Assembly (NCBI GenBank): GCA_026066175.1
Contig: GCA_026066175.1_4721.1
Length of the DNA stretch: 64,000 bases
Source of the DNA: a phage
Direction: 5' to 3' (one strand)
Shown here: piece by piece, positions 23,890 to 34,975 of the stretch
How positions within the stretch are numbered: position 1 is the first letter of the stretch
Layout of the letters: every line of letters starts with the position of its first letter
Made by a program: the position numbers and the translations under genes
Notes under the pieces: model-generated
What the model was told of the DNA's origin: nothing
Seen by the model: the letters and a program-made list of their open reading frames with translations, nothing else
Database searches by the model: none

Positions 23890-24154
23890 TTACACCAGAC
23901 GGCACAACCACACCGGTACGAATCACTGCCGCGATTTCCTGCATCGCTTTGCCTTTCAACGCAAAGGTTTCGTATACAACAGCACGTCGGGTTGTTAGGC
24001 CCACAAACTTACAGACGACCATGTTGTCTTCTGAAAGATACGCGGTTTCCAACTCACCGTGCAGCAGTTCTTTTTCTCGAGTATCAATGCCGATTAAGGC
24101 AATTTGATAGGCAGATAGTTTCCAATAACGCATATTCATCCTACTTGTAAACAA
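23840..24154 (-). CDS. Hypothetical protein
   Basis: 104-aa ORF. Confidence 0.3.
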   Translation of the reverse strand: MFTSRMNMRYWKLSAYQIALIGIDTREKELLHGELETAYLSEDNMVVCKFVGLTTRRAVVYETFALKGKAMQEIAAVIRTGVVVPSGVSDDLDEVLHGTRKTAC

Positions 24155-24966
24155 TCAAATATTCCGAAACCGAGTTCCTCGTTTCTACTTTAGCCGAGAT
24201 CATTCTCCTTACCGTAATCGGATGAAATTCTGATGCGGTACTATAGATTTCTTCAACCAATGGGCACGTACTATTACTGATTACGGTAGGGATACCCGAC
24301 TTACGAAGTTTGTCGGCCGTTTCTGCAAGGTATCGGTGGTCATCCAACGTGAATCCTTCCTTGGTATAACCTGTAAAAGAGGCTGTGGTCGAAATAGGGA
24401 TATACGGCGGGTCGCAATATACGACATCGCCCGATCTCACGTTTTCGAGGTGTCGTCTAAACCCACCACTTACAATTTCCACCCCCCCCCCCCTCGACGG
24501 TGGTACGAAGATGGTTAGCAGCCGTCCGTAATTCGTATTTCGGACAATAGATCGTCTTGTATCGTCCGTGCGCAACGTTAAATAATCCGTTTTGGTTATA
24601 GCGACACAAACCATTGAATCCGTAACGGTTCAGGTATATGAAACACACCGCACGTTCCCAAGGATCGTTGCTTTGATTAAAACGATCGCGTACCTCGTAA
24701 TAACGTTTAACGTCTTCCGGTGAAATTTGGAATAAACGTTCAACATCCTCAATGAATTGTTTCGGACATGTCACCAACGCTCTCCAAACATTAAGGATAT
24801 CCTCGTTAGCATCCCCAATGGAATAACTAGGATATTTCAGTGAAAGCGTCACCGCGCCAGAGCCGACGAACGGTTCAACCAAGCGTTTTCCATCCGGCAA
24901 CACATTCCTAATTTCAGGGATAAGTTTGGTTTTGTTACCCAACCATTTAAGAAACGTTTTATTCAT
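24141..24966 (-). pseudogene. dam: Dam-family N6-adenine DNA methyltransferase, split by a frameshift in a 12-nt homopolymer
   Basis: N-terminal ORF (24457-24966) has FLKWLGNK...LVEPFVGSGAV; C-terminal ORF (24141-24614) has VVYCDPPY; the two frames meet in the run of 12 C on the plus strand (12 G in coding sense) at 24482-24493; one fewer G gives ...RTTVEGGGVEIVSGGF... in frame. Confidence 0.75.
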
Positions 24967-30264: not shown

Positions 30265-30596
30265 TTCACATTCTCCGTTATTTGCTTTAAACAGTTACGT
30301 ATACTTTTCAATCGATGGTTAAATTCAGAACGATAGCACTTTCGTACATCCCGTCCTGCTCGCGCTTTGTTTGCCTGATGAAGCTGTTCATTCACCTGGG
30401 ATGCTATACGTAAACGCTGTAATAATGACCTCAGCCGAACAACAACCAACGGCTGTTCTTTCACTTTCTCGAGTTTAAGTAGATAGTCAATATGAAACTT
30501 TATTCCGATGATCTGATTCCTATTTTTGCGGTACTGGCGAATATGCCAACATCGACGGAAATAGGCGATGCTAAACATGGGGTAGATTCTCTTCAA
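30258..30596 (-). CDS. Basic hypothetical protein
   Basis: 112-aa Arg/Lys-rich ORF. Confidence 0.35.
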   Translation of the reverse strand: MKRIYPMFSIAYFRRCWHIRQYRKNRNQIIGIKFHIDYLLKLEKVKEQPLVVVRLRSLLQRLRIASQVNEQLHQANKARAGRDVRKCYRSEFNHRLKSIRNCLKQITENVKC

Positions 30597-30599
30597 ATG

Positions 30600-30797
30600 C
30601 TACCTCCGATAATACTTCGGATTAGGTGCTTTATGGTACTTATAAATACCTATTTTCTTCTGTTTGTCTTTACCAGGTCCTCGCTTAACGCGTTTGTTGA
30701 AAACACGATCCAAATATCGAGTAGCTATAAATCTGGACAAATACACCGGATCGATATAATCCATGGTACCTGCTTCTGTTTCTTCGAGACACTGCAT
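30600..30797 (-). CDS. Small basic protein with KRGPGKDK motif
   Basis: RVFNKRVKRGPGKDKQKK; member of a four-copy small-protein family. Confidence 0.3.
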   Translation of the reverse strand: MQCLEETEAGTMDYIDPVYLSRFIATRYLDRVFNKRVKRGPGKDKQKKIGIYKYHKAPNPKYYRR

Positions 30798-30823
30798 CCG
30801 TAACTCCTCTTTCCTCTAAGAAA

Positions 30824-31027
30824 TCAATCCAACATAAGCCACGACATCGCTTTCACGAGATAATCCAATGCAACGTCCATGATTCTTCGTTCCGACGTTT
30901 GTGTGATGCGTGCCGTAAATCGCTTTCCTTTATTACAACCCTTCTTGTATTTCCCTTTGATATAACGAACACCAATCGTGTCACGAATAACAAGTTCGGC
31001 TACGTCGTAGGGCGATATCTTAGTCAC
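30824..31027 (-). CDS. Small basic protein with KKGCNKGK motif
   Basis: RYIKGKYKKGCNKGKRF. Confidence 0.3.
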   Translation of the reverse strand: MTKISPYDVAELVIRDTIGVRYIKGKYKKGCNKGKRFTARITQTSERRIMDVALDYLVKAMSWLMLD

Positions 31028-31037
31028 CGTGTTTACC

Positions 31038-31193
31038 TCAAGTAGAGAAGGTTATCGGCTTTATTTCTACCTGTCCGTACATCCAGGTGTATCTCGATTT
31101 TCCTTTACGAGGACCTTTCTTAAATTTGGTGCTTATCGAAATACGATAACAGTACGACCAGGTCGCACGATTTATAGTGATCTTGTCCGCCAT
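31038..31193 (-). CDS. Small basic protein with KKGPRKGK motif (ORF absent from the supplied track)
   Basis: Hand translation: MADKITINRATWSYCYRISISTKFKKGPRKGKSRYTWMYGQVEIKPITFST; GAGGG upstream. Confidence 0.25.
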   Translation of the reverse strand: MADKITINRATWSYCYRISISTKFKKGPRKGKSRYTWMYGQVEIKPITFST

Positions 31194-31202
31194 GCCTTAC
31201 CC

Positions 31203-31496
31203 TCAGTGCAATTGTTTCTTAAACCCAGCATTAAGGAGCTGGGTTCTTTCATCGATAGTATCCAACGTGGTCAATAACAACCTGCGTTGTTCTTTCGTCA
31301 ACATCTCTCCTTTAAGACGCTGTTCTATTTCTATCTTCAGTAGCATCGGCATCGTTTGCGATAGCACGCTATCCGCTTCTATCTCGTAATTATCTTCCGG
31401 CGTGGGTAATACATCACTAACACCGACAAGATAATGGCCGATAACGGTTCGTCGTCTTTCCATTGCCTCCAGCAGTTCGCTGCTCACTTCATCCAC
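31203..31496 (-). CDS. Hypothetical protein
   Basis: 97-aa ORF with a GTG start preceded by AAAGGAGGA. Confidence 0.4.
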   Translation of the reverse strand: MDEVSSELLEAMERRRTVIGHYLVGVSDVLPTPEDNYEIEADSVLSQTMPMLLKIEIEQRLKGEMLTKEQRRLLLTTLDTIDERTQLLNAGFKKQLH

Positions 31497-31539
31497 GATT
31501 ATCCTCCTTTAAGGGCGAGGTACCTCGCCCTTAAGATCT

Positions 31540-32559
31540 TTATACCGCTACTTGTGCTTTAATAGCAGGGTGTGATTGATATCCGACGAACACAAAGTCT
31601 TCGTAACGGTAATCCGTGATACTCTCCGGTTTCCGCACAATTTTCAGTTTCGGTAGTGGATACGGCTCACGACTAAGTTGTTCTTTAACCTGTTCGAAGT
31701 GGTTATGGTAGATGTGACAATCTCCACCTGTCCACACAAACTCCCCAACGTCCATGTTCAGCTGTTGCGCAAGCATGTGTGTTAACAACGAATAGGAAGC
31801 AATGTTAAAGGGCGTCCCGAGCAGCGCGTCCTGGCTACGACAAGTCAGCATACACGACAGTGCGCGCGTAGGTACGTTATGCGCATTCAACCAGAGTTCG
31901 GTTTCGCTCTGTTTAACATCGTCGGTAACCCATCGTGCTCTTAGCGCATCGTTGCGGTGGACGTAATAAACACGTTCATCGATAGTGAGTTCATGGGTGT
32001 AGAACTGATAGAAACTGTGGCATGCAGGAAGCGCCATATCGTCTAAATTGCCTACGTTCCATGCGCTAACGATAATCCGTCGAGAATCAGGATCTTCTTT
32101 GAGTTGACGCATCACGTTTGCAATTTGGTCATGGTGTTTAACATACAAGAGATGTTTAACCATACCGTCGTTAACAATACCGCAATACTCATAACCGCGT
32201 TGCATCAAAGTACGGGTACGTTCGGTGTCGTGCGGAACAACAACTTTGTAGTCGATCCATTCACGCCATTGTCTACCGTAAATCGGCCCTAGGTTCCCTT
32301 CTTTATCAGCCCACTCATTCCAAATACGTACGCCGTTATCCTGAAGATACGCGACGTTCGTATCACCGTTAAGGAACCAGAGTAGTTCGTGAACAACGCT
32401 CTTAAGGTGAATCTTCTTGGTGGTGACCAACGGAAACCCTTTCTTTAAGTCAAAATGCATTTGACGTCCGAATACCGAACGTGTGCCGGTACCGGTACGA
32501 TCAGCTTTATCGCGACCGCTATCCATGATGTCTTGTAAGAGATCTAAGTACTGTTTCAT
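31540..32559 (-). CDS. thyA: Thymidylate synthase (ThyA family) with two insertions
   Basis: Collinear with E. coli ThyA from MKQYL..DRTGTGT..FPLVTTK..HELLWFL to [14 protein letters not shown], the catalytic Cys in [21 protein letters not shown] and C-terminal REP.PLPKL; ~40-aa and ~30-aa insertions give 339 aa versus 264. Confidence 0.85.
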
Positions 32560-32768
32560 TTCAATCCTCTAAACGCTTTAGGTAGTTCCTGAAGTTTGTC
32601 ACGATATTTAGAATCGCTTAACGTGTAACAACAACCACGTAACACGTTGTATGCGTAATCAGCTTGTAAACCACGAACCATCGGATCCGACGATAGATTC
32701 AATGGTACATCATCAAAAATCCACACTTCAACGTTCTTCTTGTGTTCCTTCGTTAACATCGTTTTCAC
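32556..32768 (-). CDS. Hypothetical small protein
   Basis: 70-aa ORF, ATGA-coupled to thyA. Confidence 0.35.
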
Positions 32769-32828
32769 CTCACGATAAAGTAAATAGGATTTGTCGAGAC
32801 GCCCTATTCTTTTATCGTTGGTTTTCCA

Positions 32829-33692
32829 TTAGTAATAATATCTGATACGTTCGGGTTTTGCTAAAACACTCTGTTCGAATGGCCTTACATGTACGCAAAC
32901 ATCGACAGAATAATAGATACTACCATCGCCACACCATCGCATTACCACACATCCCTTTCTTGTACGAATATGGTAAAACGTCCACTGTGTTTGCCAGTTA
33001 TCGTCTGTGGATTCTTCCGTTCTTTCTTCCGCATCAAGAATCTTTTCACCGACAATATCGCTTAAATCACCATCGATATCGCTGAGATATACCGTCTCGC
33101 AACACTCACGGCTGTGGTACATTTCTACCACGTTATCGTCTTCGCGATGAAAAAGGATAGCTTTACAGTATTCCAGCTGTTCCTCGGTTATTTCTGACGC
33201 GTTAAGTAATTCGTCGTTATCAGTCACCATCCAGATATTTTTGATTACATGCCCGTCGAGCTCCTCCATTGTAAATACCTCGATATTCGGACGAACGGGT
33301 TCAGGTTGAACAATCGGAATACGAACACAACCAATTAAGGCCATCCGTCCTTTCTTTGGTCTAACCGCAAGGTAAGGTGATTTTCTTGGGTGGTTATGCA
33401 GACGTATTTCTAATTCGTCGAATTTAATCCCGTATATACCTAAGAAACGATCGAACAACCGATGAAACTCATCTGTTGCTTCTTCCAACGTTATGGCGTC
33501 TACCGTGAGTTTATGTCCCCTGAACACTCTGGTTAAATCGATAACGTCCAGTGTCTTGAAATATATTTCCGTAAGGGGATGATTTGTATTTTCCAGGTAC
33601 GTAATGGTTCTTTGAACCCAGATTTTAGGCGCAGCGCCTTTAAAACGTTTCAGGTATTTAAAGCGATAACGGGTATGATCTGATGTTATCAT
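32829..33692 (-). CDS. Hypothetical protein
   Basis: Start moved to MITSDHTRY (GAGAGGAGG upstream); the longer ORF would read through the terminator hairpin. Confidence 0.45.
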   Translation of the reverse strand: MITSDHTRYRFKYLKRFKGAAPKIWVQRTITYLENTNHPLTEIYFKTLDVIDLTRVFRGHKLTVDAITLEEATDEFHRLFDRFLGIYGIKFDELEIRLHNHPRKSPYLAVRPKKGRMALIGCVRIPIVQPEPVRPNIEVFTMEELDGHVIKNIWMVTDNDELLNASEITEEQLEYCKAILFHREDDNVVEMYHSRECCETVYLSDIDGDLSDIVGEKILDAEERTEESTDDNWQTQWTFYHIRTRKGCVVMRWCGDGSIYYSVDVCVHVRPFEQSVLAKPERIRYYY

Positions 33693-33766
33693 TTTAGCCT
33701 CCTCTCTTAGCTTCAGAGAATTCTCAAAATCCGTTAGTTTTGATAGACCGAGTAAGACGGCATAAA

Positions 33767-33787
33767 AGCCTCCCTCCATGGGAGGCT
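33767..33787 (-). terminator. GC-rich stem-loop with TTTTATGCC tail
   Basis: AGCCTCCC / GGGAGGCT; minus-strand tail TTTTATGCCG. Confidence 0.5.
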
Positions 33788-33800
33788 TTATTACGATAAT

Positions 33801-34349
33801 TTACATTACGCGGACAGCGAATTCAAGGACGTATACGTCATCGGCGTCCATTGGGTTTGTGGTCGAATAACCAATGAAACAATACCCCATCGCTGAAACG
33901 AAATCTTCGAGTTTATCAATGCTATTTGCGAGAATGCGATCATCGATGCTCAAACGGCATTTACGCGTTATTTTGTTACCGCGCGGTACGGCGGATAACA
34001 AACACATGAAATGCGTGATGCGGTTGTTATGGATAAACTGCGAATAGACATCAGAAGGATTGAGACTCCCCATAACGTCCTGAATGTGTGCACGACGTCC
34101 AGGTGATACATATTCCGAGTATGCGAATGTCGCTACCGTACGACGATCTTCAGTGAAATACGTATTACCTTCAGGGTGGTAGCTCTCCACGGTTCCATCT
34201 TCGCGGGCGACGGTTACGATAGGTGCACCGTATTCGTCACGGCTGAAATCAACTTTGCATTTATCCGTGAGTGGTAGTATCGTGCACGGCTTCGCGGTGT
34301 TCTCATCCGGGAGATCATAACCACTCATCATTTTCAAGAACATAGACAT
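33801..34349 (-). CDS. Hypothetical protein, paralog A of a local three-gene family
   Basis: N-terminus MSMFLKMMSGYDLPDENTAKP..TVATFAYS resembles 34436-34975; C-terminal KITRKCRLSIDDRI resembles 35051-35362. Confidence 0.45.
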   Translation of the reverse strand: MSMFLKMMSGYDLPDENTAKPCTILPLTDKCKVDFSRDEYGAPIVTVAREDGTVESYHPEGNTYFTEDRRTVATFAYSEYVSPGRRAHIQDVMGSLNPSDVYSQFIHNNRITHFMCLLSAVPRGNKITRKCRLSIDDRILANSIDKLEDFVSAMGYCFIGYSTTNPMDADDVYVLEFAVRVM

Positions 34350-34401
34350 AATAGAACCTCATGGTAATAGAAGATAGAGTTAATAGATACTACAACAGAT
34401 T

Positions 34402-34425
34402 GAGGGGGTATTATCCCACCCCCTC
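34402..34425 (-). terminator. Stem-loop
   Basis: GAGGGGGT / ACCCCCTC. Confidence 0.4.
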
Positions 34426-34435
34426 GCAGGGATTA

Positions 34436-34975
34436 TTACTTCTTATAAGGCGTGACTCTAAAGACACCCTCATTCTGATCATAAACAACCACGAACTGTC
34501 CGGCGAATAGATGACGGAGTAATGAGTCGATATTGTTTATAAATTGACTGTCATTTATCTGTACAAAATCGATTACGCGATCTCGCTTCAAACTACGATC
34601 GATTAAGCGTATTTCAAGCAACGCCATGATAAGTTTATCGTTAAGATATCCGCCTGCCTCCAAGGCTTTTCCATAACTGACGTTTTTGATATCAGCACGC
34701 ATACGCTCGACGTCTACCATGGGGAAACCGCAAGAATACGCATATGTTGCGACAGTGTTACCGTTATCCATCACGTAGACGTTACCGCCGGGATAATCGA
34801 TAAAACGTTGGGTTTTGTCACCATGAACAGCGATTTCTAACGTCGGTTTACCCATCGAATTGCGGTTGAATTCGATGGTCGTCAAGCGATCCGGCACCAC
34901 ATGCAGTGTAAACGGTTTCGAGTTGTTTTGATCGCTGGTATCGCAGTTGCCCATCATTTTTACAATAACACTCAT
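34436..34975 (-). CDS. Hypothetical protein, paralog B
   Basis: MSVIVKMMGNCDTSDQNNSKP..TVATYAYS. Confidence 0.45.
   Translation of the reverse strand: MSVIVKMMGNCDTSDQNNSKPFTLHVVPDRLTTIEFNRNSMGKPTLEIAVHGDKTQRFIDYPGGNVYVMDNGNTVATYAYSCGFPMVDVERMRADIKNVSYGKALEAGGYLNDKLIMALLEIRLIDRSLKRDRVIDFVQINDSQFINNIDSLLRHLFAGQFVVVYDQNEGVFRVTPYKK

Follow-up and report, generated by a model that had tools for sequence, protein, structure and literature searches.

A probably canonical thymidylate synthase with two surface insertions in a Goslar-like jumbo phage

Jumbo phages such as Escherichia phage Goslar (gp141), SPN3US (gp37), Erwinia Machinavirus, 201phi2-1 (B3FJL1) and phiKZ (gp235) encode enzymes annotated simply as thymidylate synthase (TS). 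We found no biochemical or structural characterisation of chimallivirus or jumbo-phage TSs in the literature, and a literature search covering the Goslar and SPN3US TSs, jumbo-phage ThyA insertions and Gln165 mutagenesis returned nothing on insertions. A 2026 study of viral TS homologues considered the 12 residues within 6 Å of C5 of deoxyuridine monophosphate (dUMP), together with the positions whose identity follows the product and the substrate (PMC13326640). In the numbering of Escherichia coli ThyA (Ec), position 143 is Leu in methyl-forming enzymes and Asp or Glu in hydroxymethylases, and position 169 is Asn in 5-hydroxy-dCMP (deoxycytidine monophosphate) synthases (PMC13326640); at position 177, according to the part of an older study that is quoted there, Asn goes with dUMP and Asp with dCMP (Hardy & Nalivaika 1992, cited in PMC13326640). 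Here we describe thyA (31540..32559, minus strand) in a 64,000-nucleotide stretch of phage DNA (assembly GCA_026066175.1, contig GCA_026066175.1_4721.1), called the window below. Around gp141, the window shares synteny with Goslar, which is a nucleus-forming chimallivirus, and the 339-aa thyA product is the gp141 orthologue (86% nucleotide and 92.9% amino-acid identity). This protein is very likely a canonical ThyA of a Goslar-like jumbo phage, which makes deoxythymidine monophosphate (dTMP) and belongs to a decorated subfamily, and its second insertion most likely forms a docking or dimer-stabilising surface.

The gene is a single open reading frame (ORF) of 339 codons on the minus strand, with an ATG start and a TAA stop, and its assignment draws on the ORF, Pfam and NCBIfam matches, identity to Goslar and an AlphaFold2 (AF2) model. 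The product matched PF00303 (Pfam Thymidylat_synt) over its full length (E 3.9e-112, 374 bits against a cut-off of 24.3), exceeded four NCBIfam thymidylate-synthase equivalog cut-offs (NF002497, 411 vs 327; NF002499, 406.4 vs 405; TIGR03284, 351 vs 108; NF002496, 336.6 vs 325) and was assigned to phrog_160. Its best solved relative in the Protein Data Bank (PDB) was E. coli ThyA (E 1e-109). Consistent with the first-pass annotation, which had called the two proteins collinear, they align in three collinear blocks (residues 1–101 with Ec1–101, 141–188 with Ec107–154 and 233–339 with Ec158–264); all 264 E. coli residues are alignable, with identity at 172 of the 264 aligned positions (65%).

The catalytic Cys reported in the first-pass annotation is C180, within the motif L177-P-A-C180-H181 (32017..32031, minus), where Leu177 corresponds to Ec L143 and the order of Ec A144 and P145 is swapped. 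The context is therefore LPACH instead of L(A/P)PCH, and the change of P145 to Ala is rare (4 of 95 aligned sequences). A further strand and loop (31804..31863, minus) carries C240 (Ec Q165), R241, S242, Q243 (Ec C168), D244 (Ec D169), G248 and N252 (Ec N177), and the C-terminal AQVAV (31543..31557, minus) corresponds to the E. coli APVAI lid and terminal carboxylate. The phosphate-binding Arg quartet and Ser are kept (R21, R160, R161, R241 and S242, for Ec R21, R126', R127', R166 and S167), as are C180 and H181. Conserved residues, in E. coli numbering, comprise R21, K48, E58, I79, W80, W83, Y94, R126, R127, L143, C146, H147, R166, S167, D169, L172, G173, F176, N177, H207, Y209 and the C-terminal VAV. 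Among the folate and lid residues, I79, W80, W83, L172, G173, F176 and V262-A263 are identical and only the terminal Ile, here Val, differs.

The three diagnostic positions are all in the TS state: Leu177 (Ec143), Asn252 (Ec177) and Asp244 (Ec169). The Asn of the PFNIAS motif had been read earlier as pointing to dUMP as substrate, and its alignment with Ec N177 bears this out. Ec L143 and D169 are invariant in all 95 subfamily and outgroup sequences, and the 5-hydroxy-dCMP synthase signature of the RB69 gp48 / DLP3 gp80 type (D169N with N177D) is absent. Ten of the 12 residues within 6 Å of dUMP C5 are as in E. coli, the two differences being Q165 to C240 and C168 to Q243. Judged from its residues, production of a modified base by the enzyme is not supported.

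Where the phage protein departs from E. coli ThyA is in two insertions. These had been estimated at about 40 and 30 residues; both are there, but the sizes were only approximate and the second is in fact the larger (net +34 vs +41 residues). Insertion 1 (residues 102–140; 32140..32256, minus) replaces Ec102–106 with 39 residues and forms a β-α-β-β unit at the Ec101–107 site of the small domain, which we take to be the site of the 8-residue insert in eukaryotic TSs. Insertion 2 (residues 189–232; 31864..31995, minus) replaces Ec155–157 with 44 residues, and the alignment and the AF2 model place it as a three-helix bundle at the tip of the β-hairpin linking the Cys180 strand and the Arg241 strand. 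The AF2 model, built from the 95-sequence alignment, has a mean predicted local distance difference test (pLDDT) of 97 and a predicted TM-score (pTM) of 0.94, with no low-confidence segment. In this model, insertion 1 consists of a strand (101–107), a helix (112–120) and two further strands (124–130 and 135–143), while insertion 2 lengthens the hairpin strands (181–190 and 232–244) and places helices 193–202, 204–213 and 217–226 between them. The GC content of both insertions is indistinguishable from that of the core. The ratio of nonsynonymous to synonymous substitution rates (dN/dS) against Goslar is 0.03 in the core, 0.20 in insertion 1 and 0.04 in insertion 2; by this measure, both insertions are under purifying selection. 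An Rfam scan of 30500–34500 at E ≤ 1 gave no match within thyA and two Phe-leader matches outside the gene, which were judged chance. An intron, intein or RNA element within thyA was rejected, because there was no such match and the insertions are in frame and selected.

Do solved TSs offer a precedent for these insertions? Insertion 1 superposes on the solved Burkholderia thailandensis TS (PDB 3V8H). A PDB sequence search with insertion 1 alone gave chance matches only, with no detectable similarity to 3V8H inside the insert, so the link to that enzyme is one of position, length and structural superposition. The phage protein is not a member of the long-type family NF010393 / PRK13821 (218 bits against a cut-off of 576), and only residues 1–203, insertion 1 included, align to it in one stretch. 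For insertion 2, Foldseek and PDB searches found no solved chain that covers its roughly 50 residues, and a PDB sequence search with the insert alone again gave chance matches only. In a Foldseek search against BFVD, the Pseudomonas phage 201phi2-1 TS (B3FJL1) covered the whole model, insertion 2 included (TMq 0.93).

An exhaustive search of 1.84 billion cluster representatives returned 16,135 TS-family matches, and the best 150 were examined for the spacing between the catalytic Cys and the RS.D motif. In this sample, which is biased towards sequences with inserts, as these score higher against the query, about 100 of the best 150 representatives showed a spacing of 44–110 residues, against the canonical 20, and the 95-sequence alignment contained 72 sequences with insertion 2, 42 with both insertions, 30 with insertion 2 only and 6 with insertion 1 only. 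The first-pass annotation had not recognised insertion 2; it does lack a solved precedent, but it is not peculiar to this phage. Both insertions align across the deep subfamily, with anchors kept among representatives less than 50% identical. The conserved positions of insertion 2 sit at its ends (L191, E195, R196 (66/72), L224/D225, V229, P230 (67/72) and R232), and its middle varies in sequence and in length (26–69 residues among carriers). It is net acidic in 78% of carriers, with a median charge of −2, down to −11.

Many aligned phage ThyAs have 16–86 extra residues at a third insertion hot spot, Ec83–88, which we take to be the Lactobacillus casei / eukaryotic small-domain site; the 50-residue L. 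casei insert presumably lies between W83 and Y94, matching this hot spot, and not at Ec101–107. The Erwinia Machinavirus ThyA loci L007:2001-3224 and L008:2001-3119 illustrate this hot spot. All three insertions are found in the 407-aa ThyA of pEa_SNUABM_9, and the ChrisDB ThyA has the third insertion and insertion 2 without insertion 1. By tblastn, ThyAs of 338–407 aa occur in SPN3US (58% identity to gp37), Erwinia Machinavirus and relatives, CR5 and others.

Every sampled contig carrying insertion 2 is phage-like. These include a 370-kb contig with T4-type RNA ligase and DnaJ genes, a 78-kb contig with a primase and a sigma factor, one contig with a primase and another with a terminase, one with an intein-rich replication and nucleotide module, and a jumbo-phage-like element of roughly 107–224 kb labelled Salmonella or E. 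coli. On a metagenomic phage contig, the two-insert ThyA P0247 lies in a dTMP operon (L018:5932-9400) with dCTP deaminase (DCD), dNMP kinase (DNMK) and dihydrofolate reductase (DHFR) genes; DHFR overlaps the ThyA stop codon, and NDK, an intein-containing DNA methylase and replication genes are nearby. Another two-insert homologue, P0139, is two genes from DHFR. Separately, we observed more than 100 near-identical two-insert ThyAs of 339–351 aa (P0004–P0120) on contigs of about 220–225 kb in assemblies labelled Salmonella enterica, E. coli or Shigella sonnei. The inspected contig of this set was jumbo-phage-like (dense ORFans, a DUF7941 protein and a 2377-aa SLT-domain protein), which suggests that a widespread jumbo phage is being sequenced along with the isolates. 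One insertion-bearing homologue, P0200 (386 aa), has Asp at Ec177, Leu at Ec143 and Asp at Ec169, a residue pattern that would be expected of a dCMP methyltransferase and not of a TS.

How might the insertions fit the function of the enzyme? As a canonical ThyA, it would convert dUMP and methylenetetrahydrofolate (CH2-H4folate) to dTMP and dihydrofolate (H2folate), so providing phage DNA synthesis with dTMP made in the host cytoplasm, and the H2folate would be recycled by host FolA. In PhiPA3, TS-GFP stays out of the phage nucleus (PMC9067925), which places chimallivirus TS in the cytoplasm. The conserved catalytic core would carry modules at up to three surface hot spots, two of them occupied here, and the insertions would leave the chemistry unchanged. 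The Cys and Arg hairpin strands belong to the sheet that forms the obligate TS dimer interface. Insertion 2 would extend the hairpin at the far end of these two strands, whose other ends carry Cys180 and Arg241; since these residues mark the active-site ends and the strands lie in the interface sheet, it is predicted to point away from the catalytic centre and to project, near the interface, from the edge of the sheet about 25–30 Å from the catalytic Cys. A dimer-stabilising or partner-docking surface is the most likely role, and the conserved anchors, the variable acidic surface and the phage-only carriers among the sampled contigs all fit it. Finer-Moore and colleagues are said to have proposed in 1994 that surface insertions of T4 TS are contact sites for the complex that synthesises deoxynucleoside triphosphates, and our view of insertion 2 is modelled on that proposal.

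Four points weigh against a canonical enzyme with a docking or dimer-stabilising insertion. The changes Q165C, C168Q and P145A could have a quantitative or specificity effect. The location of insertion 2 is deduced from strand topology and known TS structures, and its role is a guess. Members of the insertion 2 subfamily are known from sequence and models alone. Finally, tblastn found no phage DHFR in Goslar or the window, which removes one positive argument here, though we count it as neutral because host FolA can serve; with no DHFR found in either, we used DHFR adjacency in the homologues as evidence for TS function. Goslar gp203 was considered as a DHFR and rejected, its match, the best by tblastn (E 0.001 over 57 aa), being taken as chance.

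A more committed proposal, which we regard as possible but rather unlikely, makes insertion 2 a dedicated docking module. Its anchors E195, R196, P230 and R232 are conserved and its surface varies between lineages, and it would recruit ThyA to an assembly for nucleotide synthesis that is specific to the phage. Its partners there would be thymidylate kinase, DHFR or, in chimalliviruses, the side of the phage nucleus that faces the cytoplasm. If so, dTMP would be channelled towards phage replication and insertion 2 would be a widespread, unrecognised structural signature of phage 'metabolon' ThyAs.

The two substitutions near C5 raise the alternative that Q165C/C168Q (and P145A) loosens pyrimidine discrimination, so that dCMP is also methylated or specificity is otherwise altered. 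Gln165 helps to orient Asn177, which excludes dCMP, and P0200, with Asp177 and Leu143, shows that dCMP-methylase-like variants occur in the subfamily. Both Q165 and C168 lie within 6 Å of C5 (PMC13326640). However, Asn177 itself is kept, and the pattern at Ec165 and Ec168 (codons 240–243, 31831–31842) looks compensatory. Gln165 is replaced in 28 of the 95 aligned sequences (by M, I, A, L or C), and the two positions covary: Asn or Gln at 168 occurs in 0 of 67 sequences with Gln165 and in 14 of 28 without it. In the alignment, Q165C with C168Q thus looks like a relocated amide, a compensatory exchange and not a change of chemistry. Moreover, allele P0001, whose protein is about 91% identical, has the canonical LAPCH...QLYQRSCD, which suggests that its QRSCD and the form in the window would be functionally interchangeable. 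We consider loosened specificity highly improbable.

The same region of the gene is mosaic. Nucleotide identity collapses over codons ~191–250 (31810–31989) among four Goslar-like alleles, compared at L001:12001-13020, L014:3001-4020, L015:3001-4020 and the window. Between Goslar and P0001, identity is 97–100% over codons 1–100 and 94–98% over codons 261–339, against 68–70% over codons 221–245. Between the window and Goslar, dS is about 2.3 in insertion 2 versus 0.96 in the core, and omega in insertion 2 is 0.04. Because high dS goes with low dN/dS, the comparison of alleles indicates an imported divergent segment, not relaxed selection. The patch carries the active-site differences. Host gene conversion was rejected as the origin of the canonical patch in P0001, which is 64% identical to E. 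coli thyA DNA, versus 67% for the rest of the core.

The mosaic patch also covers the classical td homing site. In T4 td (L020:5236-7113), the I-TevI motif CAACG is formed by the Gln175 codon and the first two bases of Arg176 (Ec Q165-R166), 23–25 nt upstream of the intron site at Gly183 (Ec G173, G248 in the window). C1 and G5 of this motif are critical (PMC5009752). At the motif position, the window has TGTCG (31838–31842, minus), Goslar GCAAG and P0002 GCGAG, all with the critical C1 lost; all Gln165 alleles keep CNNNG, and SPN3US has the exact CAACG. Recurrent loss of Gln165, with the amide moved to 168, may represent escape from I-TevI-like homing endonucleases. Loss of C1 is consistent with such escape yet is no evidence for it: C1 is the first base of the Gln165 codon, so its loss follows automatically from the codon change. 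Together, the Gln165/168 swap and the mosaic patch give a small case in which endonuclease-driven evolution of an essential active site can be tested.

Could the insertions themselves be inert, translated footprints of mobile elements, such as a degenerate intron, an intein or an endonuclease remnant? Group I introns and homing endonucleases classically target thyA/td (PMC5009752), other parts of the Goslar genome contain group I introns and HNH genes, and the DNA around insertion 2 is a recombinant mosaic. This origin is nonetheless very unlikely: purifying selection is strong, the anchors are conserved across representatives less than 50% identical, the AF2 folds are confident and compact, and Rfam gave no match. 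In addition, a solved cellular TS that looks functional also has insertion 1, and insertion 2 does not coincide with the td intron site but precedes it by about 15 codons.

We give equally little credence to insertion 2 as an RNA- or DNA-binding module, for example one through which the enzyme controls translation of thyA, as the E. coli and human TSs do with their own genes. Binding of TS proteins to their own mRNA is known (PMC6523895) and three-helix bundles are common among nucleic-acid binders, but the net acidic charge in 78% of carriers speaks against such a role, and just one Arg is strongly conserved.

The first-pass annotation had asked whether the enzyme makes 5-hydroxymethyl-dUMP (5-hmdUMP), which could be the first step of thymidine hypermodification, and had taken two methyltransferase genes as a hint of a modified pyrimidine. 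Phage TS homologues do include hydroxymethylases (PMC8989533), Ec165 and Ec168 are non-canonical here, and an amide (Asn) at 168 is also found in SPO1 gp29 and T4 gp42. Against this, Ec143 is Leu, where SPO1 gp29 and T4 gp42 both have Asp; W80, W83, F176, N211, H212 and the C-terminal lid are kept, and differ or are missing in SPO1 gp29; and identity to SPO1 gp29 is 22–23% (BLASTP E 3e-05 at 22%), versus 65% to E. coli ThyA. Ec177 and Ec169, too, are in the TS state. No dTTPase/dUTPase, dCMP deaminase, hmdUMP kinase, 5-HMUDK or transferases were found. The Goslar annotation lists no dUTPase, dCMP deaminase, second TS-family gene or enzyme modifying 5-hydroxymethyluracil (hmU), and tblastn of Goslar and of the window, the 64 kb of this phage inspected, detected neither Dut nor a dCMP deaminase nor a second TS-family gene. 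No role in the nucleotide pool could be assigned to the HD-domain and phosphoesterase genes of the window, and Goslar encodes a thymidylate kinase. Two-insert homologues are paired with DHFR, an enzyme for which a hydroxymethylase has no use (PMC4528723).

The methyltransferases give no support to a modified pyrimidine either. A Dam-like (D12 class, DPPY) N6-adenine methyltransferase gene (24141–24966, minus) is broken into two overlapping ORFs by a G12 tract (24482–24493) that is the sole homopolymer of at least 9 bases in the window; G11 instead would give an intact 274-aa Dam-like protein. The gene has no homologue in Goslar; slippage that switches it on and off, decay to a pseudogene or a sequencing error in the homopolymer could each account for the break. 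The second gene gave a weak generic match to class I S-adenosylmethionine (SAM) methyltransferases. Since one is a frameshifted N6-adenine enzyme and the other a weak class I match, neither has a bearing on pyrimidine C5 chemistry. A dUMP hydroxymethylase is the least probable of the readings considered.

Upstream of thyA lies a 70-aa ORF (32556..32768, minus); its stop and the thyA start overlap in the sequence ATGA, which implies that translation of the two is coupled. Goslar gp142/gp141 show the same stop/start-overlap arrangement. Between the thyA stop and the next gene is a perfect palindromic hairpin with a 12-bp stem, TTTAAGGGCGAGG TACC TCGCCCTTAAG (31508..31535), which precedes the AGGAGG ribosome-binding site and GTG start of an ORF at 31203–31496. 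Because no T-run follows the hairpin on the minus (coding) strand, it does not qualify as a canonical intrinsic terminator of thyA. Upstream of the thyA operon, the window has an additional ORF of 316 aa (32829–33779, minus) with a C-terminal DUF7448 / phrog_2650 domain; it was not found at the matching position in Goslar or the P0001 contig, and the P0002 contig has a 294-aa version (L015:1467-2351).

For annotation, the consequence of a canonical ThyA is small: thyA codes for a thymidylate synthase, thymidine in the phage is most likely ordinary, and there is no new DNA modification to infer. The value is structural and evolutionary, in a large set of phage ThyAs with a conserved three-helix module where no solved TS has anything, and with up to two further hot spots. 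The variant is common among phages yet uncharacterised, its second insertion having no solved precedent, and the insertions offer a handle on the organisation of the phage enzymes of nucleotide metabolism during infection, also in cells that contain a phage nucleus.

How, then, does the enzyme compare with described TSs? With E. coli ThyA (264 aa; for example PDB 2TSC and 1TYS; Foldseek TM-score 0.96, normalised to the target) it shares the catalytic Cys, the Arg quartet, the folate residues, Asn177, Leu143, Asp169 and the C-terminal lid; E. coli ThyA has neither insertion, and has Gln165/Cys168 and Ala144-Pro145 in place of Cys240/Gln243 and Pro178-Ala179. The B. thailandensis ThyA (3V8H; the NF010393 / PRK13821 long type, 323 aa) is 37% identical and is without insertion 2. 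T4 td TS (PDB 1TIS) is also phage-encoded and adjoins DHFR; it has 286 aa and a canonical hairpin (FNVRNGYLDLQWYQRS) without insertion 2, and its gene contains a group I intron, which thyA in the window does not. The dUMP hydroxymethylase SPO1 gp29 and the dCMP hydroxymethylase T4 gp42 share the superfamily fold, the catalytic Cys, Glu58, Tyr94, Arg166, Ser167 and Asp169, whereas SPO1 gp29 has Asp at Ec143 and an extended C-terminus unlike that of the phage enzyme, which has Leu177 and a TS C-terminus. The jumbo-phage TSs named at the outset share the decorated architecture, with insertion lengths that vary (339–457 aa in total) and, in some (pEa_SNUABM_9, ChrisDB), a third insertion of 70 aa at Ec83–88.

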